In this document: positions 284-64,000 of the stretch, in pieces | Position numbering within the stretch: the stretch's first letter is position 1 | How the letters are laid out: every line of letters begins with the position of its first letter | Virus record (IMG/VR): IMGVR_UViG_2933088407_000001 | Location: 24,120-88,119 of that record | Origin: a virus | Taxonomy: Duplodnaviria; Caudoviricetes | DNA: 64,000 nucleotides | Direction: 5' to 3' (one strand) | The notes under the pieces: model-generated | What the model was told of the DNA's origin: nothing | The model's input: only the letters and a program-made list of their open reading frames with translations | Databases searched by the model: none | Program-made: the position numbers and the translations under genes

Positions 284-850
284 TCAGGTCAACCCACTCA
301 TGGCGTCCCAGGTGTTCTGCCGAGGGGGTGCTGGCTGCGCGAACTCCTTGCGAAACGGATCCCAGTACCGCAGTTGGACGCCGAGCATCTTGGTTGGGTG
401 ACGCTCGCGGTAGCGGTCGTAGACCGTTCCCGGAAGGCCGTTCATTCCCTCGTTGGTGTTGCAGGTACGGCACAGCAGCCCGCGAACCAGCCCGGTGTCG
501 TGGTCATGGTCCGTCACTAGCCGCTCGACGCCTCCGCAGATGGCGCAGCGGCCATCCTGCCAGGCACGCAATCGGTCCTCCGCTTGTTCTTCAGAGGCGG
601 CGCCGGGTCGGTCTACAGGCCAGCTCCAACAGATGGGAGGGCCCGTCACAAGAGCGGCGTAACGCTGACGGTACGGCTCCCAAGCCGCGGCACTCTCCGC
701 CTGCCTGGCCCTGTAGTCGGTGCGCTCTTCCTGGGTCAAATGGGTCACGCACGACTCGTACGGATGGAGCCGGAAGCCCTGGCACGGTTTCTTTGTCGTC
801 GCGGTGGCTCGACCGCAGCGCGGGGGCGGTACGAACGCGATGTCATTCAC
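284..850 (-). CDS. endonuclease VII-domain (His-Me finger) protein
   Basis: Motif CAICG...LVTDHDHDTGLVRGLLCRTCN. GTG start at 850 overlaps the recombinase stop (GTGA). Confidence 0.85.
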   Translation of the reverse strand: MNDIAFVPPPRCGRATATTKKPCQGFRLHPYESCVTHLTQEERTDYRARQAESAAAWEPYRQRYAALVTGPPICWSWPVDRPGAASEEQAEDRLRAWQDGRCAICGGVERLVTDHDHDTGLVRGLLCRTCNTNEGMNGLPGTVYDRYRERHPTKMLGVQLRYWDPFRKEFAQPAPPRQNTWDAMSGLT

Positions 851-1878
851 AGTCCGAGTCCGATCAGCGCGTTGTCCTGCTCGTCCCACTGGTCCACGAT
901 CTGCATGTAGCCGTCCAGCACCTTCGACCCCTCCTTGTGCCCCGTGATCGCCGCGATGGCCTTACGGTCCTTGCCCTTGCGGCGTGCCTCCGTCGCGAAC
1001 CCGGAGCGTACCGAGTGGCCCGTGAACAGAGCCTCGACCCCAGCGCGGAGGCCGGCCGCGGTGATGAGATCGCCGGCACGCTGCGGCGTGAGGCCCTGCG
1101 GCTGCACGGCGCCGGTGTGGTGGATGCGGCGGAAAGCGTGCCGGTCCGGGGCGGCGATCTGCGCGGCCTCGACCCATTCCTTCCAGGCCCGCACGGGGCA
1201 GGTGGCCGGGTTGGTGCCGAACGGTACGGGCACCGTGCGGGGCTCGGTCTTGGACACGCGCACGTCGACCAGGAGCCCGTTGTCGTCGTCGCGGATGTTG
1301 CGCAGGCGCAGTCCGGCGAGCTCGGCGCGGCGGGCTGCGATGGAGAACCCGAGGAGCAGCATGGCCCGGTCGCGGATACCGAAGATGTCGCCGTCGCACT
1401 TGTCGACGATGAGACGCAGTGTGTCCAGCCGCATGGCTGGCGCCTTGCCCCGGCCTCGGGCTGGCTCCTCTGCCTCCTCGGCCTTCTTGCGGTAGTCCTT
1501 CAGCAACTCCCGGGCGGCCTTGGTGTCTTCGGGGCTGATGACGACGCCGTACTGGGTGCGCAGGGTGACGGTGACGCCGGCGAGCTTGCGGTCGATGGTG
1601 GAGTAGGCGCGTTTCTCCCGGTTCCACAGGTAGTCGACGAAGGCGCGCAGCGTGCCGCGGGTGGCGGCGGTGGTGGGGATCTGGAGCTGGCCGCAGAAAG
1701 CGGTCCAGGTCTTCCAGTCCGCGGCGTAGGAGCGGACAGTGTTGTCTGGGCGTTGGTCCTGGGCGTGCTCGTCGGATGCGGTGTCGAGGGCGGCGAGGCG
1801 AGCGCGGAGGGCGTCGTCGAACTCTGCGGGCAGCAGCGGGGCTTGGGCGGGTCTGGCGGGCAGATTGTCGGTGCTCAC
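847..1878 (-). CDS. Cre-like tyrosine site-specific recombinase
   Basis: RDRAMLLLGFSIAARRAEL (catalytic R), VSKT (K), GHSVRSGFAT (HxxR), ITGH..LDGY (H, Y). N-terminal core-binding domain NTVRSYAADW. GTG start overlaps the upstream stop. Confidence 0.9.
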   Translation of the reverse strand: MSTDNLPARPAQAPLLPAEFDDALRARLAALDTASDEHAQDQRPDNTVRSYAADWKTWTAFCGQLQIPTTAATRGTLRAFVDYLWNREKRAYSTIDRKLAGVTVTLRTQYGVVISPEDTKAARELLKDYRKKAEEAEEPARGRGKAPAMRLDTLRLIVDKCDGDIFGIRDRAMLLLGFSIAARRAELAGLRLRNIRDDDNGLLVDVRVSKTEPRTVPVPFGTNPATCPVRAWKEWVEAAQIAAPDRHAFRRIHHTGAVQPQGLTPQRAGDLITAAGLRAGVEALFTGHSVRSGFATEARRKGKDRKAIAAITGHKEGSKVLDGYMQIVDQWDEQDNALIGLGL

Positions 1879-2126
1879 GCCTGGCCGCCACTGTCCGCGG
1901 GGACAGGACCTGTCTCGAGAGAGTTGGTCAGGAGGACCGCTTCGGCAGAGATCAGGGAGGCAGCCTCGGTGTGACCTTGGGCGCGCAGCTTGTCGGCTAG
2001 TGCCCACGTGTAACGGGCGAGGTTGGCGTCGATGACCCATTCCTCGCCGGGCTTGAGCATACGGCGGGAGTGCAGCGCCTCGATGAAGGTGTCTCGGGCG
2101 CTGCCCATGACTGTCTGGTCGGCCAT
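1875..2126 (-). CDS. hypothetical protein
   Basis: ORF track. ATG at 2126 has an AAGGGG RBS, and the stop is coupled to the recombinase start. Confidence 0.6.
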   Translation of the reverse strand: MADQTVMGSARDTFIEALHSRRMLKPGEEWVIDANLARYTWALADKLRAQGHTEAASLISAEAVLLTNSLETGPVPADSGGQA

Positions 2127-23495: not shown

Positions 23496-24545
23496 TCAGA
23501 ACACCGACGCCGTGACGTGGATGTCCGGGACATACATCACCGGCATGGCGACAGCGGCGCCCTTGGTCCACACCTGGACCGGGTCGTCCTTGTAGCCGTG
23601 GGTGACGACGATGCCGGGGGCTTCCTCCCGCTCGATGGCGGGGTTGCCGCCGGAGGACAGGACCAGGGACTCGGCGGTGACGCCGTACTGCGTCTCGGCC
23701 CACTCCTGCGGGTTCGGGGGCAGCAGGATCCACTTGTTGTCGGGGATGGGGCGGGCGGTGGTGCCGTCGTCCAGGGGGATCTGCACGTCGTAGATCTGGA
23801 TGGGCGGCAGCCCGTAGCGCGCTCTCACGACGTCGACCTCGTTGGGCGCGAGGGTCGCCGTGGGGGTGTTCGACGGGTTCACCGAGCCGTAGTAGGCGGC
23901 GCGATAGGCGTTGTTCGCCATGAGCAGCGCGCGGGCCTTGTAGGAGGTCAGGACGCGGGAGGGAAGAGGCGCGCCGGAGGCCCGGAGCGTTTCGATCCAG
24001 GCCTGCTCGTCGGCGATGGCGTCGGCGGTCGGGTCCGTCCACGCGGTCGAGGCGGTCGGCATGTTCGCCGAGGGAACGCCGGCGTCGTACTCGACGGTCA
24101 GGCCGTTCTCTCCGGAAAGGGTGAACTTGCCGTCGGTGAGGAGGTCGCCGACGGCGAGCTCCAGGCGGGACTTGATGGACTGCACGTGGGCGGCGACGTC
24201 CTGGTAGAGCAGTTCGACCAGTTCGGAGGAGTCGGCGCCGCGGGCGGTGTCGAGGAGGATCTGCTCCAGTTCGCCGACCAGGTACTTCTGGCCGAGCGGG
24301 GGCAGCATGCCCTCGGTGACGATGCGCTGCGCCTCGCGGGTGGCGACGGCGGTCTGCGCGTCCCAGGCGCGGTACTTGGCGGCGGCGACCCGTCGCGAGC
24401 TGCGCTTGATGCGGAACTTGACGGAGTTGATGGCGCGTTCCGGCATGACCGAGAGGGTCAGGGCGTAGTCGGCGGGTGTCTGGACCTCGCGGACGAACGC
24501 GTTGATCGCGGTGGCGTCGATGTCCCTGAGCAGGGCGTCAAGCAT
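23496..24545 (-). CDS. major capsid protein (Phage_cap_E-like)
   Basis: 349 aa; YRAWDAQT, LPPLGQK, ETQYGVTAE, DPVQVWTKGAAVAMPV; synteny after scaffold and decoration genes. Confidence 0.92.
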   Translation of the reverse strand: MLDALLRDIDATAINAFVREVQTPADYALTLSVMPERAINSVKFRIKRSSRRVAAAKYRAWDAQTAVATREAQRIVTEGMLPPLGQKYLVGELEQILLDTARGADSSELVELLYQDVAAHVQSIKSRLELAVGDLLTDGKFTLSGENGLTVEYDAGVPSANMPTASTAWTDPTADAIADEQAWIETLRASGAPLPSRVLTSYKARALLMANNAYRAAYYGSVNPSNTPTATLAPNEVDVVRARYGLPPIQIYDVQIPLDDGTTARPIPDNKWILLPPNPQEWAETQYGVTAESLVLSSGGNPAIEREEAPGIVVTHGYKDDPVQVWTKGAAVAMPVMYVPDIHVTASVF

Positions 24546-47501: not shown

Positions 47502-48065
47502 GTGGATCCCCGAACGACGGCGCTCATCGTGGTGGACGTCCAAAACGGCTTCGTCAACGACCGCAGCCAGCACGCCGTCCCTGTCGTACAGCGCCTCGTC
47601 GACTCCTGGACCAAGGCCGGCGCCCCCTTGGTCTTCGCCCGCTTCTACAACGCCCCAGACTCGCCGTACGAGCGATTCACCGGCTGGACCCGGCTCCGCA
47701 GCGCCGAGGAGCAGAGCATCGTCGCCGACCTCGCCCCGTACCTCCCGTCCGCGGCCGCGGTCATCGACAAGCCCACCTCCAGCGCCCTCACCGCCGACTG
47801 CCTCCAGCTCATCCAGCGGTCCGGCTGGACGGATCTGGTGATCTGCGGCATCGACACCGACTCCTGCGTCTACGACACCGCGGTCTCCGCCTACCACGCC
47901 GGCTACCGCCCTTGGCTCGTCACCGACGCCTGCGCCTCCACCGGCGGAAACGCCTACCACGAAGCCGCGCTGCTCCTCGCCGGCCGCAACCTCGGCCGGA
48001 AGCAGCTCGTCACCACCAATGAAGTGCTGTGCCGACTGACAGCCGCCACGGTGGAGGCGGCATGA
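47502..48065 (+). CDS. isochorismatase-family cysteine hydrolase
   Basis: ALIVVDVQNGF (D), IDKPTSSA (K), GIDTDSCVYDTA (C), LVTDACAS. Confidence 0.9.
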   Translation: MDPRTTALIVVDVQNGFVNDRSQHAVPVVQRLVDSWTKAGAPLVFARFYNAPDSPYERFTGWTRLRSAEEQSIVADLAPYLPSAAAVIDKPTSSALTADCLQLIQRSGWTDLVICGIDTDSCVYDTAVSAYHAGYRPWLVTDACASTGGNAYHEAALLLAGRNLGRKQLVTTNEVLCRLTAATVEAA

Positions 48066-49039
48066 ACGACCTCATCGTCATCGGCGCCGGCCCCGCCGGA
48101 TGCGCGGCCGCGGTAATGGCCGCCAGCCTCGGCCAGCACGTCACCGTGGTCGAAACCGACAAGGTCGGCGGCAAGCTCCACCAGATCAGCGCCCTGGAGA
48201 ACGTCCCCGGCGCCTGGGCCACCGGGCCGGCACTCGCGCAGGCCCTCGCCGCGGACCTCGCCCGGATCCAGCACTCCGGGCGCTGCACGCTGATCGAGGG
48301 CCGGGCGATCAGCGTCGCCGGGCATGACGACCGGGCCGAAGCTGTCCTCAAGGACGGGCAGGTGCTTGCCGCGGCCGCGGTCATCGTCGCCACAGGCGTT
48401 GCCGCCGTCACCCCCGCCACAGCCGACTGGATAGCTGCGCCCGACGGCCTGGACCTGCCGCCTCTGTGGCGTGCCCGGCCGGAGGAACTGCGGGGCCGCA
48501 CCTACGTCCTTGGCGGCGACCGTCCTCTCGGGACGTGGCTGCGGTCGCACCCTGGCGTCACTCGTCGGCTGCACGTCCTGTACCCGGCGGCTGATCACTA
48601 CAAGACCGACGAAGTGCGCGGCGACGACCGTGTCCGGCTGAGTCTCGCCGACCGGGTCACGGTGGCGCGGGAGCGGTACGGCGACGGCTACGAGGTGGTT
48701 GTCGAGGGACCGGAGGGGCGCCGCACGTTCGCCGTGGACACGTTGGTGAGCAACCTCGGGAGCCTTCCCGCAGCTCTCGACGGGCTCGTCCAAGATCCGG
48801 TTGGCTACTGCCCTCCGACCGAGCAACATCCGCGCATCTTGACCGCTGGTGACCTGAGGTCGGGTCGGTTTCAGCGGATCGTCACTGCTCAGGGGTCCGG
48901 CGCGGAAGCTGCTCTCGAGCGTTACTACGCAGCGAAGGCACCTGCGGCGAATCTGGCCTCGCGGGCAGTACGGGCCTCGGCGGTGGACGTGAGCCGCGAT
49001 CTGATCGCGATGGTCGAGGCCGGGAAGGCTGACGAGTAG
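48062..49039 (+). CDS. FAD-dependent oxidoreductase (thioredoxin reductase-like fold)
   Basis: DLIVIGAGPAG, IVATG, ILTAGD..IVTAQGSGAEAA. No CxxC. Confidence 0.85.
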   Translation: MNDLIVIGAGPAGCAAAVMAASLGQHVTVVETDKVGGKLHQISALENVPGAWATGPALAQALAADLARIQHSGRCTLIEGRAISVAGHDDRAEAVLKDGQVLAAAAVIVATGVAAVTPATADWIAAPDGLDLPPLWRARPEELRGRTYVLGGDRPLGTWLRSHPGVTRRLHVLYPAADHYKTDEVRGDDRVRLSLADRVTVARERYGDGYEVVVEGPEGRRTFAVDTLVSNLGSLPAALDGLVQDPVGYCPPTEQHPRILTAGDLRSGRFQRIVTAQGSGAEAALERYYAAKAPAANLASRAVRASAVDVSRDLIAMVEAGKADE

Positions 49040-55943: not shown

Positions 55944-56120
55944 CGCGCCTGGATTGTTCGCGTTGAGCCCCTGCCCGGCGGGTGGGGGCTTTCGTGTACC
56001 CACCCGTGCCTGCATTTCTGTGGCGATCACAACATAAACAAGGTAGAGTCGAGACAAGCAGCAACCGGGCAACACACCACGCCGGACCGCGCAACCATGA
56101 ACCCCTCCCAAGGAGCACCC

Positions 56121-56306
56121 ATGACCACCGCCCTCCAGCCCCTGCCCACCACCCCCGAACAGCTCATCGACCTCGTCATCAACCAGCCGGCAGGAACCGA
56201 CCTGCACGCGCAGCTCTCGGCCCAGGTCGGCGGCCGCCAGGCCAGGCGCATCCTCGCCCGCACCCACGGCCTGATCGCGGACCGCCTGTGGGCCGAAGCA
56301 GCCTGA
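56121..56306 (+). CDS. hypothetical protein
   Basis: AAGGAG RBS. Confidence 0.6.
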   Translation: MTTALQPLPTTPEQLIDLVINQPAGTDLHAQLSAQVGGRQARRILARTHGLIADRLWAEAA

Positions 56307-56412
56307 ACCCCTGTGCCCCGGACTCCCCCAGCCGGGGCACAGGTCTACCCAGACCCGGGCAACACCCGCGCGATACCGCGAAACCATGGACACCCGCCCC
56401 AAGGAGCCCCGA

Positions 56413-56802
56413 ATGCCGCTCGACATGACCGGCGACGCACGCCACAACCCCAGCGTCCACTACCGCCGCTACCTCGACCGCGACAACAAGGTCACCATCG
56501 TCTGCGTCCAGAACTTCGACTACTACGACTACGACGCCTCCCGCTTCGCTGACTACGCCAGCTTCGACACCGATCTCGAAGCCCAGTACGCACCCATCAG
56601 CCCCGACGACGCCCTCGACGCCGCACGCGAACTCCCCGGAGACCGCGTCGCGGCCGCCCAAGCAACGCGGCTCGCAAGCGCCATCCGCATCCACAACACC
56701 CTCGCCGACGGCAACCAGGCCCTCCTGCAGCACCTGGACGAGGTCATCGACGTGGAAGCCGGCCTGCGTCAAATCCTCGACCACGGCAAGGAGCAGCAGT
56801 GA
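56413..56802 (+). CDS. hypothetical protein
   Basis: AAGGAG RBS; coupled to the next gene. Confidence 0.65.
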   Translation: MPLDMTGDARHNPSVHYRRYLDRDNKVTIVCVQNFDYYDYDASRFADYASFDTDLEAQYAPISPDDALDAARELPGDRVAAAQATRLASAIRIHNTLADGNQALLQHLDEVIDVEAGLRQILDHGKEQQ

Positions 56803-57407
56803 CCGACGACCTGCGGCAGCGCATCGCCGATGCCTTCTATGACACCTACGGCCAGCAGAACCGCGACCGCTCCCGCGCCATCGCCGAAGCGTCCCTCGCC
56901 GCCGTCCAGCCCGAACTGGACGAGCTGCTGCACTACCGGAACGCCATCGTCTGGGAAACGTCCTGCCTGTCCTGCTCCCGCATCCTCGACAACGCACGGG
57001 CGCGGGAAGAGGAACTGGAGCGGAACATCGACTACCTCAAGCGGAACATCCGCAGGTCCCGGGACCAGGTAGATGGCTACGACCAGGATCTGGCAGCAGC
57101 TAAGGCCGCCATCGACCGGGCCCGCGCATTGCACCGTCCCGTCAAGCACCTTGGCCGAACGATCTGCGTTGACTGCTCCGCCTGGGACGGCAAGGGGTCA
57201 ACCGATAACTCGCCCGTCGACTACGACCAGTGCGCCACCATCCGCGCCCTCGACGGGCCAGCCGAGCAGCCCCTGTGTGCCGAATGCGGGCACCCGCAGG
57301 ACGAGCACGAAGACGCCGACGAGCCCGTATCCGTCGGCCTCTGCAAGACCTGCGACGCGAAGGGCAGCGACGACGCCTGGCACGACTACGAACCCGAGGA
57401 GGCCTGA
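56799..57407 (+). CDS. Cys-rich coiled-coil hypothetical protein
   Basis: CxxC motifs, coiled coil, ARALHRP..C..C...C.TIRALD. Confidence 0.65.
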   Translation: MTDDLRQRIADAFYDTYGQQNRDRSRAIAEASLAAVQPELDELLHYRNAIVWETSCLSCSRILDNARAREEELERNIDYLKRNIRRSRDQVDGYDQDLAAAKAAIDRARALHRPVKHLGRTICVDCSAWDGKGSTDNSPVDYDQCATIRALDGPAEQPLCAECGHPQDEHEDADEPVSVGLCKTCDAKGSDDAWHDYEPEEA

Positions 57408-58255
57408 TGGCCCGCCTGACGTCAGTGCCCGCACCCGCCAAGGCGGACAGGCCGAAGCGCAGCTACGCGGAGCGGATCAGCGCCATCTACGAGGACCCCC
57501 GCGTCGGCCACGAAGCCCGCGAACTGCTGCTCGCTGTGAGCTACGGCATCCAGCAGGCGGCGGAGAGCGGCGTCAACCCCCTGAAGACCGCCCGCCGAGT
57601 CCTGGGCCGCGACAGTGCCGGCCAGCTCCGCTACAGGCTGCTCGTGAAAGCCGACGCCCCCCGCTACGAACCACCGCGCGAAGCCGGTAACTGGGGCCCG
57701 TCCGGAGCGCCAACCTGTGAGGCGCCGCGCCTCCGCCCGTACAAGCCCCGGGGCTACATTCCGCACAACAAGCCCGACCCGACACTGCCCGAGCCCACAC
57801 CCATCCGGCAGCCCGTCATCCCGCCTGACATCGCGGCCTTCGTTGCCGCCTTTCAAGCGCAGGGCGGGGTAACCCACCGCCCGCCGCGGGATTGGCGCAC
57901 CGAGGACGGCGTATGCGGCGCCCAGTCTCACCACCGTGTTCTGGAGAAAGACCCGCGCACCGGCTGGACGATTCCGCACTGGTTCTGCAAGCGGCACAAG
58001 GGCCACGCTGACCGCGTCGCCGCACAGGTCCGTGAGCAGAACGAGCAGGCTCCCGAGCCGATCCCGAACCGTGGCGGACTGTTGGGCTGCTACTTCCAGG
58101 CGGACTGGGAGACGGTCTACCGGCACTATCTGCCGGGCTGGACGGTCCCGTCGTACGGACTGTGCGCAGACGACTGGCCGGCGCCTGAATCCGCGGTGAA
58201 GCGTGGGCGCCTTCGCGTGCTGGTCAGCAGTGTCGATACCGGCGGCGGCATGTAA
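57407..58255 (+). CDS. hypothetical protein
   Basis: TGATG coupling, GGAGG RBS, C..C..WFCKRH. Confidence 0.7.
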   Translation: MARLTSVPAPAKADRPKRSYAERISAIYEDPRVGHEARELLLAVSYGIQQAAESGVNPLKTARRVLGRDSAGQLRYRLLVKADAPRYEPPREAGNWGPSGAPTCEAPRLRPYKPRGYIPHNKPDPTLPEPTPIRQPVIPPDIAAFVAAFQAQGGVTHRPPRDWRTEDGVCGAQSHHRVLEKDPRTGWTIPHWFCKRHKGHADRVAAQVREQNEQAPEPIPNRGGLLGCYFQADWETVYRHYLPGWTVPSYGLCADDWPAPESAVKRGRLRVLVSSVDTGGGM

Positions 58256-58644
58256 CGCCCCAGTGTCATGTGCGGGGTTCGCGTGCAGGCCGGGCCCTGG
58301 TGGGTGTGAATCCCGTGATGGCCACCGCTCCACTCGAACGAGCGATGGAATCAGGCGAAGGCTGGGTGATACATCTAGTCAATAAGACAGGTGCACTTCA
58401 CGCCACACCCCTTACGTGCGCTTGGCGGGCCACCGGCAGGCTGCGAACTACCGACGACCCGCCCAAGCGGACAGACCACCGCCCGAGACTGCTGAACCCG
58501 GGCGGCTAGCGGCATACGCGACCGCCGCACCCCAAGCATGAATGAACAATCAACCAAATACATCTGGCGGGTTTTCACCGGAAAAACCGCCCCACAAACA
58601 CCCCTACCGCCCAACAGGCCTCACGTGATAACGGGAGAACACCC

Positions 58645-59517
58645 TTGGACGCCACGTCCCTCCAAACCCTGCTCGTCAAGCACCGCAGCCTCATCGACCC
58701 CGAAGTCCACGGCCTGTCCCGCCCCACCCGGCAAGGCCGCCGCGCACCAGGGCTCTCGCAGCAGCAGATGGACGGACTCCTCCACCGCACCGGCGGCACC
58801 TACGCCCGCCTCGAAGCCGGCCGCCACAAGAACCCGTCCATAGAACTCCTCCGCGACGTCGCCCTCATCCTCGTCATGTCCGAGCAGGAGTGGGTGGCTC
58901 TGTGCCGCTACGCGCGCGGCGAAGACCCGCCCTCAGCTCTCCGCCCCCGCTCAGGCAAGATCGTGCCCGGGATGTGGAAGGACGCCGTCGACGGCATCTC
59001 CCACATGGCGTACGTGACGGACTGCTCCTACAACCTGCTGTGCCACAACCAGGCGTTCGCCGGCCTGTTCCCCGAGACGGGCCCGCCGGGCAACATGATG
59101 CGGGGCATGCTCCTCGAGGACACGTTCCGCGGCACCCTCCCCGACCCCAGGCGCGGCAGCACCGCCCGGCCAGGCATCCTCACCGACTGGGCCACCGTCT
59201 GGGCCCCCTACGTCCTGCCCCAGCTCCTCGCCGCCCGCGCGCTGATGCCCGACGACCCGATCCTCAAGGCCATTGAGCACGACGTCCGCGACGACCCCCG
59301 CACCGGACCCATCTACGCATCCGGCACCGCCACCCAGGTCCACCCCGACGGCAACGAACGCCCCCTGCTGCACCCGACGCTGGGCCCGAGCTGGGTCAAC
59401 ATCTGCGCCGCGGGCCCGCTGTCGTCTCCGAACTCACGCCTCATGATCGTGATGGTGTACCCGGGCGAAGAGCAATCCCACGGCCGGCTCCCGCACCTTT
59501 ACGCCAAGGTGTCGTGA
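58645..59517 (+). CDS. MmyB-family XRE regulator with C-terminal PAS-like ligand-binding domain
   Basis: GRRAPGLSQQQM..YARLEAG HTH; AYVTDCSYNLLCHNQAFAGLF..NMMR..L..DW..W..LHPTLG MLTR_LBD pattern. TTG start after GGGAG. Confidence 0.88.
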   Translation: MDATSLQTLLVKHRSLIDPEVHGLSRPTRQGRRAPGLSQQQMDGLLHRTGGTYARLEAGRHKNPSIELLRDVALILVMSEQEWVALCRYARGEDPPSALRPRSGKIVPGMWKDAVDGISHMAYVTDCSYNLLCHNQAFAGLFPETGPPGNMMRGMLLEDTFRGTLPDPRRGSTARPGILTDWATVWAPYVLPQLLAARALMPDDPILKAIEHDVRDDPRTGPIYASGTATQVHPDGNERPLLHPTLGPSWVNICAAGPLSSPNSRLMIVMVYPGEEQSHGRLPHLYAKVS

Positions 59518-59603
59518 ACCTGCAACCTCGCCAAGGGCATTCCGTATCGTTTTCAACCGTAGGGTAAAACCCTCGCTAAACACATGATGCGGAGTGCCCC
59601 CTG

Positions 59604-60653
59604 ATGCCCACTCACGTCTCACGCCCCGCAATAGCCAAGGCCAAGCACCTGGCCACCGCTGATCAAACCTGCGACAACATCACCCTGCACCACGCGGATC
59701 ACCCCAAACTGGGCACCGCGCTGCGCCTGGTCCGCAACACGGGCGTCGAGACCCGCTACCTCCACCACCCCCTCGACTCCGAGCAGATCTCCGGCAGCCT
59801 CGGCATCGCCGACCGCAACCAGCAGGCATGGAACGACGCCGCCACCCTCGCCGAGAAGGCCGCGACACGGGCCCTCGAGAACGCCGGCCTCCGGCCACAC
59901 GACATCGACGCCATCGTCACCAGCAACACCACCAGCTGGGCGAGCCCAGGCCTCGACGTCCACCTCGTCGAAACCCTCCGCCTCCGCCCCGACGTCCGGC
60001 GTATCGCCCTCGCCACCGTCGGCTGTATCGGCGGCGCCCAGGCCCTCACCCGCGCCGCGGACCTCGTTGCGGCGCACCCGGGTAGCCGCGTCCTCGTCGT
60101 CGTGTCCGAGGCGCTGTCCACGATCTATCATCACGCGGACAGCGCGCTGGAGTCGATGATCTACAAGGCTCTGTTCGGCGACTCCGCCGGCGCCTGCGTC
60201 GTCTCCGCCGACCAGCTCACAACCGGTATGCGCATCGAAGACACCTGGGAATACCTCCTCCCCAACTCCCGCGACCGCTACTGGGGTCGCATCGACGAGC
60301 TGGGCATTCACTTCGACTCCACCCGCGCCGCCACCGAGGCACCAGGGGACGCTATGCCCGCCCTGGTGGAGTGGCTGAAGGGCCGCGACGCCACCAACCC
60401 GGACTGGACAGTCGTCCACGCCGGCGGGCCCGCCATCCTCACCGCGGCACAGCAAGGCCTCGACCTCACCGACACCCAGCTCGCCCACTCCCGGGCCAGC
60501 CTCCGCGAGGTCGGCAACCTCGGCGGTATCAGCGTCCTGGACGTCCTCGCCCGCACGTACGCCAGCCCACCCGCCAACCGCGACAAGGGCGTGATGCTGG
60601 CCTACGGGCCCGGGTTCACCACCGCCGCACTCACCGGCACCTGGACCGCCTGA
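59604..60653 (+). CDS. type III polyketide synthase (RppA/PhlD-like)
   Basis: Catalytic Cys-His-Asn in TVGCIGG, VHAGG, VGNLG; also NTGVETRY, ALFGD and AYGPGFT. Confidence 0.92.
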   Translation: MPTHVSRPAIAKAKHLATADQTCDNITLHHADHPKLGTALRLVRNTGVETRYLHHPLDSEQISGSLGIADRNQQAWNDAATLAEKAATRALENAGLRPHDIDAIVTSNTTSWASPGLDVHLVETLRLRPDVRRIALATVGCIGGAQALTRAADLVAAHPGSRVLVVVSEALSTIYHHADSALESMIYKALFGDSAGACVVSADQLTTGMRIEDTWEYLLPNSRDRYWGRIDELGIHFDSTRAATEAPGDAMPALVEWLKGRDATNPDWTVVHAGGPAILTAAQQGLDLTDTQLAHSRASLREVGNLGGISVLDVLARTYASPPANRDKGVMLAYGPGFTTAALTGTWTA

Positions 60654-60782
60654 CCGATCCGCCGGCGCCCTGTGCCACCCTTGGCACTGCCCGGCGGGAC
60701 CGCGCCGAAGGAAGCCGATGCGACCGCCGGGCCCCACCACGCACAGGGGCAATGCCCGGCCGAATCCGCGCCAGCATGAAGC

Positions 60783-61070
60783 ATGGCCCCTTCCCCCGAA
60801 CCACAGCCCGGCGACTGGCACGAAACCCTCGTCGACCTCCTCGCCATGGACCGCGGCATACCCGAGGACCGCGCCCGCCGTTTCCTCGCCCGGTACGCCG
60901 AAGAGGCGCGCGCCTCCGCCCCAATCCCCAGCGAGCAGCGCTCCGATGCGCTGGCCGCCATCGACCGGGTTCAGGCCGTCGCCCGGGATTGGGAGTTCAT
61001 GAGCGGCCGCACCGCAGCCCGCAACGAACTCCTCGCCGCACTCAACGGACCCAGCGGGGAGCAGCGGTGA
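60783..61070 (+). CDS. hypothetical protein
   Basis: Leaderless start behind GGGGCAATGCC-N15-CAGCAT. Confidence 0.6.
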   Translation: MAPSPEPQPGDWHETLVDLLAMDRGIPEDRARRFLARYAEEARASAPIPSEQRSDALAAIDRVQAVARDWEFMSGRTAARNELLAALNGPSGEQR

Positions 61071-61192
61071 GTGACCGTGCGTGCAGCCTCGTCGGCGCGC
61101 TCATCGGCGTCACGGCCGGCGCCGTCCTCACCCTGGCCGCGGCACGCGCCGCCGTCGACTGGGTTATCGCCCAAGCTGCAAAGGCCGACTGA
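61067..61192 (+). CDS. small membrane peptide
   Basis: GTGA coupling; single TM segment. Confidence 0.45.
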   Translation: MSDRACSLVGALIGVTAGAVLTLAAARAAVDWVIAQAAKAD

Positions 61193-61202
61193 GGCGGTTG
61201 GC

Positions 61203-61394
61203 TCAGCTATCGGTGTCAGGTTCCGGTCGACATGGAGGGTTCGCGTCGGGGCGTCGGACGTACCACTCCATGAATAAGCGCAGTTCGGCCGATCGGTCGC
61301 TGTCGACACTTGCTGCTGCTGCTCCGAAGTCCTTCCAGAGCTGGTCAGGGATCCGACGGATCCCACGAAGTTTCTCGCTGTGCACGTTGGCCAT
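61203..61394 (-). CDS. RHH (Arc/MetJ-like) repressor
   Basis: RGIRRIPDQLWKDFGAAA..DRSAELRLFMEWY. Confidence 0.7.
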   Translation of the reverse strand: MANVHSEKLRGIRRIPDQLWKDFGAAAASVDSDRSAELRLFMEWYVRRPDANPPCRPEPDTDS

Positions 61395-61410
61395 GGAATG
61401 AATCCTCGCA

Positions 61411-61471
61411 GGGTGGTTGACCACCCGTCAAGCGTGTGTCATTCTAAGCACATCAAGGTGGTTAACCACCT
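61411..61471. promoter_or_regulatory. two palindromic operators between divergent genes
   Basis: GGGTGGTTGACCACCC (61411-61426) and perfect AGGTGGTTAACCACCT (61456-61471). Confidence 0.7.
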
Positions 61472-61508
61472 CTGATCAGCAGAAGCACCACCAACCGGGG
61501 AGGGCCAC

Positions 61509-61850
61509 ATGACCGCCACCATCGAGACCGGCACCATCGTCCGATGCCCCAAGCGCGTCGACGGTCAGATCGTGGGCACCCGCAAGGCCGTCGTCCTCGG
61601 CCTGTTCAACCCCAACGACCCCAACAGCGGATACGGCGTCTGGTTCTACACCGCCGGCCCCGCCGACACCGGCACCCTCACCCTCGCCTTCGAGCGCGAG
61701 CTCACCCCCGTTGGAACGATCGAGGACATGTCCGAGCGCACCCTGCTCAACCTCGAGCGCGACGGCCGCAACTTCTCAGGCGCCCACGCCCTGCGCATGA
61801 AGGCCAGCACCCTCCGCCTCCGCAAGGCCAGCGCTCGTCGCGGCTACTGA
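61509..61850 (+). CDS. hypothetical protein (SH3-like beta N-terminus)
   Basis: GGGAGG RBS; followed by hairpin CGCCTGCCCC/GGGGCAGGCG. Confidence 0.7.
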   Translation: MTATIETGTIVRCPKRVDGQIVGTRKAVVLGLFNPNDPNSGYGVWFYTAGPADTGTLTLAFERELTPVGTIEDMSERTLLNLERDGRNFSGAHALRMKASTLRLRKASARRGY

Positions 61851-61914
61851 TCGCGCCCCGGCGCCTGCCCCCAGGGGCAGGCGTCTCTATCAGCCACTGG
61901 CATCAAGGAGCGGT

Positions 61915-63351
61915 ATGGGAGCCCTGAATGGAACCCCAGAACAGCACGGTCACGCGGGCTTCCCTCACCCCACGGACCGGCTGGCCGGGCGTCTCGTAGA
62001 CCACCTCGCGCGCCGCATAGGCCACCAAGCCGCAGTGTCCTGGGTCCACGCGGGAGCCGTGCTGTGGTGGACCAACTCGCACAATCTGTTTCCCGGCGCT
62101 ACACCAGCGTCAACCGCAGACGGTATACGCGAAGGCGTCAAACGCCTCGCGGAAGCACACCCATCTCTCAATGGGTTCGCCGACCCGCAACAAACCGCCC
62201 TATGGAACGCAGGCATCGAAGACACTGAGGCGCAAGCGATCCACGAACTGTGGGAAAAACACCCTCCAGCGGACCCTCCATGCAGGCCACATGGCTACCT
62301 ACTCGGCAACGCCTACCAGGCCCTGTCCGAGGAGTCCCGCAAGCACCGCGCACTGGCCCAAACCCCGCGCTACATCACCGACCTGCTCCTGGACCTGGCA
62401 TTCCACCCTGCCGCAGCCCGCTGGGGCATGGACAGCTTCCAGGCCATCGACCCTTCATGCGGAACAGGTCACATCCTGTACGAGATGCTGGCCGCTGCGC
62501 AGGCGTGGACGCCTGGCGGACGCCGAACCGAGCGTCTCATGCAGCCCGGCGAGCGGCTGGAGCGTGCCCTCCACGTGGTGCACGGGGTGGACCTGGACCC
62601 GTATGCGGTGCTGATAGCCAGGCTGCGGCTGGTCGCCGCGGCCACCCTGTGGCTGAGTGCGAATCGCGTTAACCATCCGACGCTGCCGGACCGTATGCCC
62701 GATGATTGGCCGGTCAACGTGACCGCAGCGGACACCCTTCTGGACCGGACCGAGCCCCTGCTGGAGCGCGGCCGATATCACGTCGTGGTGGGCAATCCGC
62801 CATACGTGACACCGAAGACCGCTGAGCAGCGAGATGCGGTGCGTGCCTCGTACCCACAGGTGTGCCATATGAAGTACGCCCTGTCGTTGCCGTTCCACCA
62901 GCTAATGACTGACCTCCTCGTCCCGGGCGGGTGGTGCGCACAGCTGACCGCAAACTCCTTCATGAAGCGGGAGTTCGGTCGGCGATTCGTTGAGGAGTAC
63001 CTGCCGCGACAGGACCTGCGCTGGGTGATCGACACGGCCGGCGCCTACATTCCCGGCCACGGAACCCCAACGGTGATCCTCGTCCACCGCAACCAAGCAC
63101 CGGTCGGCGACACCGTATCTGCGGTACTCGGTATCCGCGGCGAGCCGGCAAAGCCAGAGGACCCCTCACGCGGCGTGGTGTGGCAGAGCATCGCCAGCAA
63201 GGTACGGGAGAAGCTGGCGTTTCAGAGACTGGCGGCCGCCGCAGAGCGCGAGATAGGGCCAGAGCCAAAGTCCCCGCCAGTCATCGAGCCGAGCGTGAAG
63301 GTCGTGAAACAGCTGTCTCTGTTCGGCGAATCACTGGCAGACGCAGCCTGA
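61915..63351 (+). CDS. N6-adenine DNA methyltransferase, truncated BREX-2 PglX-like
   Basis: Motif I IDPSCGTGHIL, motif IV VVGNPPY, and PglX-type strings TANSFMKREFG, IDTAGAYIPGHGTPTVIL, RGEP..PEDP..G.VW. Only 478 aa. Confidence 0.85.
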   Translation: MGALNGTPEQHGHAGFPHPTDRLAGRLVDHLARRIGHQAAVSWVHAGAVLWWTNSHNLFPGATPASTADGIREGVKRLAEAHPSLNGFADPQQTALWNAGIEDTEAQAIHELWEKHPPADPPCRPHGYLLGNAYQALSEESRKHRALAQTPRYITDLLLDLAFHPAAARWGMDSFQAIDPSCGTGHILYEMLAAAQAWTPGGRRTERLMQPGERLERALHVVHGVDLDPYAVLIARLRLVAAATLWLSANRVNHPTLPDRMPDDWPVNVTAADTLLDRTEPLLERGRYHVVVGNPPYVTPKTAEQRDAVRASYPQVCHMKYALSLPFHQLMTDLLVPGGWCAQLTANSFMKREFGRRFVEEYLPRQDLRWVIDTAGAYIPGHGTPTVILVHRNQAPVGDTVSAVLGIRGEPAKPEDPSRGVVWQSIASKVREKLAFQRLAAAAEREIGPEPKSPPVIEPSVKVVKQLSLFGESLADAA

Positions 63352-63362
63352 TCGACAGACCT

Positions 63363-63435
63363 GCCCGGGTGGCGCAGCGGCAGACGCGACCGCCTTAAAA
63401 GCGGACCCCCGCGGGTTCGAATCCCGCCCCGGGCA
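63363..63435 (+). tRNA. tRNA-Leu(UAA)-like (reads UUA; bldA-type anticodon) with short variable loop
   Basis: Acceptor GCCCGGG/CCCGGGC with A73; Leu-like D arm GCG..GGCAGA.CGC; anticodon stem CCGC/GCGG with loop CT-TAA-AA; T arm GCGGG-TTCGAAT-CCCGC. Confidence 0.85.
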
Positions 63436-63462
63436 CCCACCACCCCGCCCCAGGAGGACACC

Positions 63463-64000
63463 TTGAGCCTCAACCCCATCACCGAAATCCTCCGACACGG
63501 CTACTCCCTCGACGACCTCGACCGCCTCACCCGCACCGCCCTAGTCATCGACCGCTGGCGCAACGACATCAACACCGCAGACCGATACGCCGCCATCCAC
63601 TTCGCCATCACCGAACAGATCCTCACCGCGGACCAGCCGCCCGCCAGCGGCGACCTGATCGCCTGCGGCAGGCAAGCAGCCAACCGCTACGTCCGCACCC
63701 AGATGCACCACCACGGCTACGACCAACGCGACGCAGCCGCCGGCCCCCGAGCACTGCCCGGATATCAGCGGTACTGGCAGCAATCCGGCCACACCCCCTG
63801 GGACGAACGCCTAGTGGAGTCCCTAACCCTCGCGCAGATCTGGCCGCACCTCACCCTCGCCCAGCAGCAAGCCGTCATGGCCCTCGCTCTCACCGGCGAC
63901 CACCAGGAAGCCGCCGACTCCCTAGGACTGACGCTGACCGCGTTCTCCGGGCGGCTCAAGAAGGCCCGCGGCCGGGTATTCGCGCTCTGGTACGAGCACG
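63463..64000 (+). CDS. sigma-70 region-4-like DNA-binding protein, partial
   Basis: Read manually: TTG after CAGGAGG, ...IWPHLTLAQQQAVMALALTGDHQEAADSLGLTLTAFSGRLKKARGRV (sigma-4 HTH pattern). Runs off the right edge. Confidence 0.65.
   Translation, partial: MSLNPITEILRHGYSLDDLDRLTRTALVIDRWRNDINTADRYAAIHFAITEQILTADQPPASGDLIACGRQAANRYVRTQMHHHGYDQRDAAAGPRALPGYQRYWQQSGHTPWDERLVESLTLAQIWPHLTLAQQQAVMALALTGDHQEAADSLGLTLTAFSGRLKKARGRVFALWYEH

Follow-up and report, generated by a model that had tools for sequence, protein, structure and literature searches.

The Gene and Its Neighborhood

The window analyzed here is a stretch of 64,000 nucleotides (positions 24,120 to 88,119 of IMG/VR record IMGVR_UViG_2933088407_000001) from a Streptomyces phage record of 88,119 bp with a 95-bp terminal repeat. 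The phage carries the hallmark genes for a large terminase, portal, major head protein, tape measure and integrase, together with a gene predicted to encode an N6-adenine methyltransferase (MTase) that resembles the BREX-2 protein PglX and has no target-recognition domain (TRD). The features of the locus are as follows.

61509..61850, + strand: gene for a DUF6409 protein of 113 aa, the upstream neighbor (Pfam E 3e-18; phrog_21348 E 1.2e-18)
61905..61910, + strand: Shine-Dalgarno sequence AAGGAG, by sequence reading, with the ATG 4 nt downstream
61915..63351, + strand: gene for the predicted TRD-less, PglX-like N6-adenine methyltransferase (from the ORF, family matches and AF2 model)
61966..62259, + strand: N-terminal helical bundle, about residues 18-115 (AF2 model)
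62296..63255, + strand: gamma-class N6-adenine MTase core, about residues 128-447, with a terminal long helix
62449..62472, + strand: motif I, DPSCGTGH (SAM binding), residues 179-186
62794..62805, + strand: motif IV, NPPY (catalytic), residues 294-297
63256..63309, + strand: disordered Pro/Ala-rich linker, residues 448-465 (pLDDT ~50)
63310..63324, + strand: QLSLF, candidate beta-clamp-binding motif, residues 466-470 of 478
63340..63348, + strand: C-terminal ...DAA-COOH, residues 476-478
63362..63439, + strand: tRNA-Leu (anticodon TAA; ARAGORN), 11 nt past the stop codon

The ORF, whose coordinates include the stop codon, encodes 478 aa from an ATG, and this choice of start is supported by relatives that share the N-terminus MG.L.GTP.QHGHAGFP. 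GC at the three codon positions is 0.72/0.49/0.75, the GC3 being lower than for most genes of the phage. A promoter and terminator scan of positions 61000-64000 gave no promoter-like site and a single terminator-like site, not exceeding what shuffled sequences give. Among sequencing runs, one DNA run, probably the source, contains this stretch, and no RNA run is listed as containing it. The immediate neighbors are the DUF6409 gene, the tRNA and a gene for an HTH protein, with no cognate restriction gene adjoining; the DUF6409 gene is not beside the methylase gene at the other loci, and a NERD-domain ORF that lies ~1.3 kb downstream on the opposite strand is not conserved there either. A second copy of the tRNA is absent from the host assembly, which means that the tRNA is no att-site duplicate there. 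In the present phage, the methylase gene itself is located in an accessory arm that also holds a type III PKS cassette, and not in a replication module.

Domain Architecture and Predicted Structure

The AlphaFold2 (AF2) model of the protein (pLDDT 87.7, pTM 0.90) predicts with confidence a folded body at residues 18-447 followed by a disordered tail, with pLDDT falling to ~50 from residue 448 on. The body opens with a bundle of helices at residues 18-35, 37-55, 68-81, 83-89 and 103-115, which aligns with gaps to the N-terminal region of PglX, where a helical bundle has been described (PMC11341690, PMC12839542). The predicted core that follows contains the Pfam Eco57I match (residues 222-374) and is closed by a long helix at residues 421-447. 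Motifs I and IV are both present, as the initial annotation of this gene had it, and all the strings it named were located in the 478-aa protein: TANSFMKREFG at residues 345-355, GAYIPGHGTPTVIL at residues 376-389, RGEPAKPEDPSRGVVW at residues 408-423, and QLSLF in the tail. Relatives differ in the length and the sequence of the linker that precedes QLSLF, in which Pro makes up 22% and Ala 18% of the residues.

Fold comparison of the model returned the adenine DNA methyltransferases CamA, MmeI and BrxX as well as HsdM subunits. The BFVD viral structure library holds no close equivalent, every match being at 24% identity or less and the top 45 at 18% or less, and the best-scoring matches there are mostly much larger proteins.

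Relation to PglX and to Other Methyltransferases

The relationship to PglX proposed in the initial annotation is borne out by profile comparison. The NCBIfam model BREX_2_MTaseX (NF033451) matches with an E of 9.9e-93 and 311.7 bits over profile positions ~112-509 of 1185, below the 400-bit cut-off of that model, above which no match occurs in the phage. The PglX model of PADLOC (E 1.8e-99, 332 bits) outscores the best type IIG model (242 bits), and BLASTP against the BREX-2 PglX P0180 gives 38% identity with an E of 4e-81. These scores indicate that the similarity is real and far beyond chance. The strings SFMKREFG, GHGTPT and GEPxxPxD also occur in 101-118 of 120 full-length PglX proteins, and NPPY in 120/120. 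Features common to the two thus comprise the N-terminal helical bundle, the gamma-class motifs I and IV and these long strings.

The alignment with P0180 covers residues 64-502 of its 1182 and ends at residue 432 of the phage protein. BREX-2 PglX, of ~1200 aa, goes on with a TRD, spacer helices and a C-terminal DUF7008, all of which the phage protein lacks, and is encoded with pglW, pglY and pglZ; no pglZ neighbors the phage gene. The observation in the initial annotation that the target-recognition half is missing can be extended to the whole phage: neither DUF7008 nor PglZ (PF08665) was found in it, and the HsdS-type domain PF01420 gave no match at E<=0.1. By these searches, neither the protein nor the rest of the phage has a target-recognition domain. 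The gene stands alone on this phage, as had been noted.

Other families match less well. Type IIG/IIL restriction-modification enzymes (Eco57I/MmeI) have a nuclease N-terminus and a C-terminal TRD, whereas the phage protein matches only their methylase part and begins with a helical bundle. The Pfam N6_Mtase model scores 20.4 bits, just at its cut-off, and PHROGs contributes only a weak methylase family (phrog_16674, 2.1e-10).

NPPY marks glutamine-N5 methylases too, and we therefore considered whether protein or RNA rather than DNA is the substrate. Weak NCBIfam matches to PrmC (E 2.3e-4) and to an L3 glutamine methylase (E 0.2) would fit that idea, but every strong sequence or fold match is to a DNA adenine methylase and the gene is found together with other DNA MTases and with replication genes (see below), which makes a non-DNA substrate very improbable.

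A Separate Lineage of Short Methyltransferases

A search for relatives of near length returned 1300 matches at E<=1e-3 among 8000 proteins scored. The best 120 of these 1300 are mostly 400-520 aa long and 47-72% identical to the phage protein, and the highest-scoring full-length PglX reaches 278 bits. An exhaustive scan gave the same picture: the first 18 representatives, at 260-777 bits, have lengths of 263-694 aa, and proteins of ~1200 aa appear from 250 bits down. Short relatives of ~420-520 aa number in the hundreds, in Streptomyces and other actinomycetes, and a single branch with a support of 100 splits 118 sampled short relatives from 60 full-length PglX proteins. Their catalytic residues are under strong constraint. 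NPPY is kept in 118/119 short relatives and motif I in 115/119; D179, P180, C182, G183, G185 and H186 are invariant in both alignments of relatives (A1 and A2), as are N294, P296 and Y297, while P295 is invariant in A2 and conserved at 90% or more in A1. The short form, with dN/dS at 0.19-0.44 pointing to purifying selection, makes up a lineage that is old, widespread and separate from PglX.

This changes how the words "truncated" and "captured" in the initial annotation can be read, since in the sense of a recent event they do not apply. The end point recurs in relatives, coincides with the boundary of the MTase domain and is neither unique to this phage nor accompanied by relaxed selection. 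That the gene is a functionless, decaying remnant of a captured pglX is accordingly close to negligible as an explanation: the GC3 below that of the rest of the phage and the occurrence of broken relatives (one frameshifted, L010, and one cut to 366 aa, L030) could be read that way, but length and end point are repeated in hundreds of proteins of one clade, dN/dS stays below 0.45, neither catalytic motif is damaged, the fold is confidently predicted, the Shine-Dalgarno sequence is strong and the tail motif is conserved.

The family takes two forms, one without the tail on large Streptomyces plasmids and one with it on phages and prophages. The plasmid-borne copies are accompanied by other methylases, and at each of 7 plasmid-branch loci a gene of ~453 aa without known family lies 33-108 nt upstream. 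The idea that these loci hold a split pglX was rejected, the flanking genes matching the C-terminal half of PglX only at E 0.38 and 0.26. The evidence for the tail-bearing form on phages comes entirely from prophage-like or uncultured contigs; among 50,697 sequenced phage records, tblastn with the protein found no copy and megablast with positions 56000-64000 of the window no match. A tail-bearing MTase gene follows genes for a UvrD-like helicase, DnaB and SSB at one locus (L004) and genes for SSB and an N6_N4 MTase at another (L006), has a C5 MTase gene upstream at a third (L008), and lies within a prophage at a fourth (L028). No neighbor is common to the phage loci examined.

A Possible Missing Specificity Subunit

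Type I HsdM normally requires a separate specificity subunit, HsdS, which it holds through a long helix. The fold of HsdM is matched over the whole chain of the model, with TMq 0.48/TMt 0.53 over 457 columns for 2okc_B and 0.51/0.50 for 7vru_B; StySJI M (2okc), PacII M (7vs4) and EcoKI M (2y7c) share with the phage protein a helical N-domain, an MTase domain and a terminal helix, all at a TM of ~0.5 over 410-457 columns, and the long helix that closes the predicted body resembles the one that holds HsdS. BrxX, moreover, is inactive alone in vitro (bioRxiv 10.1101/2024.04.12.589305). On account of this whole-chain likeness and of the behavior of BrxX, the phage enzyme may be inactive alone, and it could be an HsdM-like catalytic subunit that takes its specificity from an unrecognized partner supplied by the element or the host, with the tail as a clamp tether or some other contact. 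The ~453-aa gene of the plasmid branch might be such a partner. The type I subunits differ, however, in that they are only 14-16% identical to the phage protein and that HsdS and HsdR were not found in the phage, which lacks PF01420 and the PglX C-terminal domain alike; the genes beside the plasmid-branch copies show no resemblance to the C-terminal half of PglX, and the phage loci offer no shared neighbor. We regard a catalytic subunit of this kind as unlikely.

The C-terminal Tail

The likeness of the tail to a clamp-binding motif, noted in the initial annotation, proved to be a conserved property of the phage-borne relatives. A strict motif, Q-[L/P]-x-L-[F/L] within the last 25 aa (a regular expression written after the tails had been seen), is present in 55/120 of the best short relatives, against a mean of 1.09 and a maximum of 5 in 1000 shuffles, and none of 120 full-length PglX proteins has such a tail. 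It sits after a linker that cannot be aligned; Q466 is invariant in the 58 tail-bearing relatives of alignment A2 and L469 is kept in 54/58, and relatives show the variants QLALPL and QLPLPGL at the same site. The motif is conserved, position-specific and non-random. It is followed by an AA ending in 41/55 motif-bearing relatives, as opposed to 4/65 of those without the motif and 1/120 full-length PglX proteins. Of the 148 coding-like ORFs of the phage, only this one has the motif at its C-terminus. On the tree the tail/no-tail label changes 19 times, in part because the strict expression misses QMDLF, QGSLF and QLALPL, so this count supports no conclusion on how often tails were gained or lost.

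QLSLF fits the beta-clamp-binding consensus QL[S/D]LF (given as QL(S/D)LF in PMC9690074) and lies near the terminus in a segment predicted to be disordered. NucS, an actinobacterial clamp client (PMC11109965), ends in KLRLF in the host as well. We read the QLxLF-type peptide as a candidate beta-clamp-binding motif.

Such a peptide might in principle be the effector itself, occupying the cleft of the host clamp so that host replication is slowed or redirected, with methylation secondary. Binding of the clamp cleft by SocB is described as inhibiting replication (PMC9690074), and MuC of phage Mu is reported to enlist the clamp (PMC12867686). For that role a complete and conserved catalytic MTase domain would be needless, and relatives without the tail retain the same core; we think it quite improbable that the tail acts in this way.

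A Decoy for Pgl/BREX-2?

The initial annotation had put forward an anti-Pgl/BREX-2 factor, and the results lend this no support. A decoy of this kind would use its N-terminal bundle to compete with host PglX for PglZ, PglY or PglW and so disable the complex. PglX types share a conserved bundle, for which a role as an interface with other BREX components has been suggested (PMC12839542; bioRxiv 10.1101/2024.04.12.589305), PglX and PglZ are described as interacting genetically in PMC4365076, and BREX-2 PglX is the nearest family by score. The catalytic motifs, for which a decoy has no need, are nevertheless strictly conserved, and the bundle is the part least similar to PglX, shortened relative to it as the alignment gaps indicate. 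The lysogen genome contains no full-length PglX (no NF033451 match over the cut-off), and its best PglZ match (PF08665), at 21.9 bits, falls short of the 25-bit cut-off. Furthermore, the same family occurs on large plasmids with other methylases, and a decoy leaves the tail motif unexplained. Taken together, these points render a decoy improbable. Nor would PglX-like self-methylation protect against Pgl, since in the Pgl model as given in PMC4365076 the methylated phage is the form that is restricted.

A Proposed Clamp-tethered Orphan Methyltransferase

The other alternative raised in the initial annotation, a replisome-tethered methylase, is favored by the conservation of the QLSLF tail in phage-borne relatives. 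On the basis of sequence and model we put the probability at about 0.5 that the gene encodes an orphan adenine methylase that is recruited to replicating DNA by the host sliding clamp and protects the element from restriction. The protein would be an active, stand-alone N6-adenine DNA methyltransferase of an old actinomycete mobile-element family, docked by its tail peptide on the host clamp, DnaN; the clamp would supply the DNA contact otherwise given by the missing TRD and C-terminal domain, adenines of newly replicated element DNA would be methylated with short or relaxed specificity, and this methylation would blunt host restriction. An artificial N-terminal domain (NTD) of PglX was soluble with no DNA binding shown (PMC11341690), and a search of the phage for a clamp gene of its own found none; both would point to a need for a tether to the host clamp. 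The replication genes and other orphan MTases next to tail-bearing copies also speak for this proposal, as do the precedents among mobile-element methylases discussed below. What the analysis shows is a family separate from PglX, with conserved catalytic motifs, a confidently predicted fold and disordered tail, and a conserved tail motif; clamp binding, a DNA substrate, relaxed specificity and a protective role are inferred.

Several observations weigh against this proposal. The tail-less plasmid branch shows that members of the family can function when the motif is absent. The location of the present gene in an accessory arm, its lower GC3, the lack of a copy in the sequenced phage records, the whole-chain likeness to HsdM and the inactivity of BrxX alone count against it too, as does the fact that the tail expression was written with the tails already in view. 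In addition, S. coelicolor is described as having no detectable DNA methylation and as possessing methyl-specific restriction enzymes (PMC4365076), so heavy adenine methylation could be a liability in some hosts.

Counter-defense by orphan methylases is already known from phages and plasmids. What would be unusual in the clamp-tethered enzyme, if the proposal is true, is that the host sliding clamp, and not a target-recognition domain, gives it access to DNA. A DNA methyltransferase would then join the bacterial beta-clamp clients, and the PglX methylase module would be an independent unit on mobile elements, which, given that the isolated PglX N-terminal domain binds no DNA, would matter for understanding how BREX/Pgl methylases are put together and switched on. 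A compact methylase whose specificity is relaxed might also serve for passing actinomycete restriction barriers.

Comparison with Known Systems

The closest functional parallels to a clamp-tethered orphan methylase come from other mobile elements. The plasmid enzymes M.BceJIII and M.EcoGIX are described as promiscuous, as acting with Pol I and as protecting against restriction (PMC7736820). They resemble the phage enzyme as orphan m6A methylases of mobile elements that work in connection with a replication protein; that protein is DNA polymerase I, on single strands, whereas for the phage enzyme it is proposed to be the beta clamp, bound via a linear motif. The prophage enzyme M.EcoGII is described as non-specific and believed to overcome many restriction systems (PMC5778455). 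It is likewise a prophage-borne orphan adenine methylase, but belongs to the beta class, has a central TRD and is not reported to carry a clamp motif, and for the phage enzyme non-specificity is only suggested.

The tail itself belongs to the pentapeptide class found in bacterial beta-clamp clients (polymerases, MutS/L, Hda and NucS), and our literature search found no DNA methyltransferase among the clients described. A methyltransferase coupled to replication in this manner is known in DNMT1, which is described as carrying a PCNA-binding peptide (PMC9690074); DNMT1 is a cytosine-5 methylase that uses a PIP box to bind PCNA, and its likeness to the phage enzyme is by analogy alone. If the analogy is pursued, and we do so tentatively, the phage enzyme may be a prokaryotic counterpart of the DNMT1-PCNA pair, in which a clamp peptide replaces the DNA-reading half of PglX-type enzymes, the host clamp moves the methylase along nascent DNA and adenines are marked there with little sequence preference. 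The AA-COOH terminus might then be a protease tag that spares only the clamp-bound enzyme, and the PglX defense enzymes and counter-defense enzymes of the present type could have arisen from one methylase module.

A short PglX-type methyltransferase

The PglX-like methyltransferase (MTase) gene has a coding signature (GC1/2/3 of 0.72/0.49/0.75), and all of the strings named in the initial annotation were located in its protein.

Features of the MTase gene and protein
Window 61915..63351, + strand: PglX-like MTase gene, intact ORF, 478 aa
4 nt 5' of the MTase ATG: ribosome-binding site AAGGAG
Residues 179-186: motif I, DPSCGTGH
Residues 294-297: NPPY
Residues 345-355: TANSFMKREFG
Residues 376-389: GAYIPGHGTPTVIL
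Residues 408-423: RGEPAKPEDPSRGVVW
Residues 466-470: QLSLF
Residues 476-478, window 63340..63348, + strand: C-terminal ...AA-COOH

The proposed likeness to PglX was confirmed by profile searches, in which the top NCBIfam family is BREX-2 PglX (E 9.9e-93; 311.7 bits, below the 400-bit cut-off) and the top PADLOC model is PglX, at 332 bits versus 242 for the best type IIG model. The MTase covers positions ~112-509 alone of the 1185 in the BREX-2 PglX profile, and its BLASTP alignment with a named BREX-2 PglX spans subject residues 64-502 of 1182, stopping at MTase residue 432. The AlphaFold2 model, built on a 58-sequence alignment (pLDDT 87.7, pTM 0.90), comprises a helical bundle (~18-115), a Rossmann-type MTase closing with a long helix (421-447) and, from residue 448, a tail at pLDDT about 50; the ESM Atlas model of the identical sequence is also confident (pTM 0.85).

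Foldseek searches of the PDB matched the MTase core of CamA and, in part, MmeI, BrxX/PglX, DrdV and BsaXI, while the whole chain matched the type I HsdM subunits 2okc, 7vs4/7vru and 2y7c (TM about 0.5). With the whole-chain fold of an HsdM subunit, which normally requires a separate specificity subunit, the MTase may be an HsdM-like protein that takes its specificity from an unrecognised partner; however, a search of the phage for a specificity subunit returned none, nor any HsdS-type domain. Salmonella PglX is described as a bundle (1-227), MTase (227-661), hinge (654-659) and target-recognition domain (TRD; 662-849) (PMC11341690), and by these limits the phage protein ends at the MTase/hinge boundary. 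As modelled, it is in effect a natural 'PglX NTD'.

A short family distinct from full-length PglX

A near-length search scored 8000 proteins, 1300 of them at E<=1e-3. The best 120 of these share 47-72% identity with the MTase, are nearly all 400-520 aa and are spread over Streptomyces, Kitasatospora, Actinomadura, Streptosporangium, Actinoplanes and other taxa; the top full-length relatives reach 278 bits at most, with 35-46% identity over 63-90% of the query. When 1.84 billion cluster representatives were scanned exhaustively with HMMER, 1841 passed E<=1e-3; the 18 with the highest scores (260-777 bits) measure 263-694 aa, and PglX proteins of ~1200 aa start at 250 bits. A FastTree phylogeny was built from 178 rows, all cut 45 residues past GHG[TS]P (the window protein, 117 short and every second of 120 long relatives; three relatives, P0001, P0028 and P0069, and the 60 unsampled long ones were left out), and a single branch with support 100 separates every short protein in the tree from the long ones. 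This branch, and the recurrence of the same short length across the family, argue against a recent capture or one-off truncation of PglX.

NPPY is kept in 118/119 short relatives and motif I in 115/119. Pairwise NG86 dN/dS between the window gene and six other loci (L003, L008, L004, L007, L028 and L023) is 0.19-0.44, values that are rough because dS (1.1-1.3) is near saturation; with the retained catalytic motifs, they speak against relaxed selection. We make these family-level statements with high confidence. Some copies look broken: at viral locus L010 (9905..11539) the match is split over two frames and the protein end is unrelated, and the copy at bacterial-genome locus L030 (9965..11065) ends at 366 aa, within the MTase core.

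A conserved C-terminal tail in one of two branches

Alignment and a tail survey divide the short family into two branches. Members of one (about 431-440 aa) stop right past the last helix; those of the other continue through a variable-length Pro/Ala-rich linker to a motif 7-20 residues before the protein end. In 58 selected tail-bearing sequences this motif begins with Q (58/58), followed by P (27) or L (26), then S, D or T, L (54/58), F (43) or L (9), and D/A-L-L. A strict pattern, drawn up after the data had been seen, occurs in 55 of 120 short relatives taken without selection, within the C-terminal 25 residues, against a mean of 1.09 and a maximum of 5 in 1000 shuffles of the last 40 residues; it occurs in 0/120 full-length PglX proteins and elsewhere in those short proteins merely 10 times in 51,758 residues. 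Variants in the same place include QMDLF, QGSLF, QLALPL, QLPLPGL and QLSF[ED]SL; the hexapeptide-like QLALPL and QLPLPGL appear akin to the alternative clamp motif known from Hda and Pol IV. Among 148 coding-like ORFs of this phage, the MTase gene alone has the C-terminal motif. An AA ending, which to us recalls ssrA-type ClpX tags, is found in 41/55 motif-bearing proteins versus 4/65 short proteins without the motif and 1/120 long ones.

Docking motifs usually take this form, a short conserved peptide that follows a disordered linker of non-conserved sequence. The pentapeptide QL(S/D)LF is found in bacterial beta-clamp clients, often C-terminally (PMC9690074), and the QLSLF of the MTase fits this consensus exactly. 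A C-terminal KLRLF is reported for all Streptomyces NucS proteins (PMC11109965), and the NucS encoded by the lysogen likewise ends ...KLRLF. The exact match and the excess over shuffled tails bear out the resemblance to a clamp-binding motif, and on sequence grounds the tail probably binds the clamp.

The tail is present in 6/8 viral loci (L003-L010, of which L007 and L009 encode one identical protein and L010 looks frameshifted) and in 2/13 bacterial-genome loci (L018-L030), one of which, L028, is followed 2.5 kb downstream by a large terminase. In phage contigs other than the present one, the MTase gene closes the replication module or adjoins further orphan methylases: the gene order at L004 is UvrD-like helicase, DnaB-like helicase, SSB, MTase, HTH protein and terminase, and at L006 SSB, N6_N4 methylase and MTase; at L008 a C5 methylase lies upstream. 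A search of 50,697 sequenced phage records turned up no relative.

Members of the tail-less branch lie in a syntenic block at no fewer than 7 actinomycete genome loci and are also found on large plasmids of Streptomyces (39 plasmid records gave tblastn matches, 32 of them from Streptomyces; 223-968 kb among the 30 records listed). Their neighbours are mostly hypothetical proteins, with further N6 methylases, GNAT, DUF4007, ADP-ribosylglycohydrolase-phosphatase, amidoligase and gamma-glutamylcyclotransferase. This branch shows that a core lacking the motif can function, or at least persist, which counts against a tether. The conserved block of ~20 kb, shared by the plasmids and genome contigs (L019, L020, L022, L023, L025, L027, L030; L097), also holds several methylases, an HU-like protein and, directly upstream, a protein of ~453 aa that belongs to no family; the block may serve in establishment or anti-defence.

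The phage and its lysogen

The window covers the final 64 kb of a virus record that measures 88,119 bp and has an exact terminal repeat of 95 bp. We assign the record to a temperate siphovirus because genes for large terminase, portal, major head protein, tape measure and integrase are present in it. The identical 88,119-bp sequence is a separate contig (L017) of a Streptomyces isolate assembly. The MTase gene lies in an accessory arm outside the replication module, a location that counts against the tether, in the order FAD oxidoreductase, IclR-type HTH protein, MmyB-type regulator, type III polyketide synthase, DUF6409 protein, MTase, tRNA-Leu(UAA) and 264-aa HTH-like protein. Its GC3 (0.75) is below that of most genes in the record (0.80 to 0.98), which suggests later acquisition.

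Other features of the phage
Window 847..2040 (-): integrase
Window 58645..60653 (+), also 48029..49039 (+): biosynthetic cassette
Window 61509..61850 (+): DUF6409 protein, 113 aa, adjoining the MTase 5' side (Pfam 3e-18; phrog_21348)
Window 63362..63439 (+): bldA-type tRNA-Leu (anticodon TAA)
Window 63463..64000 (+): 264-aa ORF 3' of the tRNA, complete in L017 11549..12343
L017 12727..13338 (-): NERD (nuclease-related domain) protein, 202 aa (Pfam 1.7e-10), outside the window at the record start, ~1.3 kb downstream of the MTase on the opposite strand
L017 14131..14700 (-): LuxR/GerE double-HTH protein, after the NERD protein

The polyketide synthase (349 aa; Chal_sti_synt_N 9e-24, Chal_sti_synt_C 7e-12) has the MmyB-type regulator (HTH_31 + MLTR_LBD) directly upstream and the FAD/NAD oxidoreductase farther upstream in the same arm; a phage-borne biosynthetic cassette is unusual. 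TTA codons occur in only 2/106 coding-like ORFs (22,066 codons), one being the integrase (codon 10 of the longest ORF); no second copy of the tRNA-Leu (TAA) was found in the host assembly, and the phage tRNA might gate integrase translation. The DUF6409 protein is no conserved neighbour of the MTase at other loci. The 264-aa ORF, for which no Pfam or PHROG family was found, has a homologue (35% identity) directly upstream of the short methylase at L010. A NERD domain is also present in PglW (PMC4365076).

In the Pgl model, PglX modifies phage in round one and restriction strikes the modified phage in the following round; PglX is toxic without PglZ (PMC4365076). Since copying the PglX mark would harm the phage, an anti-Pgl/BREX-2 role is coherent only as a decoy. 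We consider this very improbable: NPPY and motif I, needless for a decoy, are kept almost without exception, and divergence from PglX and shortening are greatest in the bundle, which has been proposed as the interaction surface. The lysogen, moreover, is without a Pgl system, as its assembly (G001, 8.5 Mb) yielded no second PglX-like gene and a sole PglZ match of 21.9 bits, under the cut-off of 25. Neither PglZ, DUF7008 nor a sliding clamp was found in the phage.

A possible clamp-tethered methylase and known systems

The isolated Salmonella PglX N-terminal domain is reported as soluble and monomeric, binding neither DNA nor Ocr, with DNA contacts coming from the C-terminal half (PMC11341690), and BrxX alone is reported to have no methyltransferase activity in vitro (bioRxiv 10.1101/2024.04.12.589305). 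An enzyme that naturally consists of the NTD alone must therefore reach DNA in some other way. The clamp ring, sliding on DNA behind the fork, would be an obvious means, and the tail would dock the MTase on it. Of the interpretations in the initial annotation, such a replisome-tethered methylase is favoured by the conserved tail motif, and recent capture and the anti-Pgl decoy are disfavoured. S. coelicolor is reported to have no detectable methylation and to possess methyl-specific nucleases (PMC4365076), so adenine methylation is not always advantageous in Streptomyces. We put the full mechanism, a clamp-tethered protective methylase, at about even odds (roughly 0.5).

A full-text literature search found no clamp-binding motif on a described bacterial or phage DNA methyltransferase. 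The text of a 2026 BREX survey (PMC12839542) lacks 'truncated', 'solo' and 'prophage', and a stand-alone short PglX is not described in 12 passages of the 27 places matched there; its supplements may list short PglX-like proteins. By analogy, there are precedents for mobile-element methylases of relaxed specificity tied to replication. The promiscuous m6A enzymes M.BceJIII and M.EcoGIX appear to work together with DNA polymerase I, and they shield a plasmid from restriction on entry (PMC7736820), the prophage-borne M.EcoGII methylates adenine in any context (PMC5778455), and a PCNA-binding motif serves DNMT1 in eukaryotes (PMC9690074). Orphan protective methylases carried by mobile elements are a known kind of gene; the TRD-less PglX-type build and the clamp-type tail make this a new variant.
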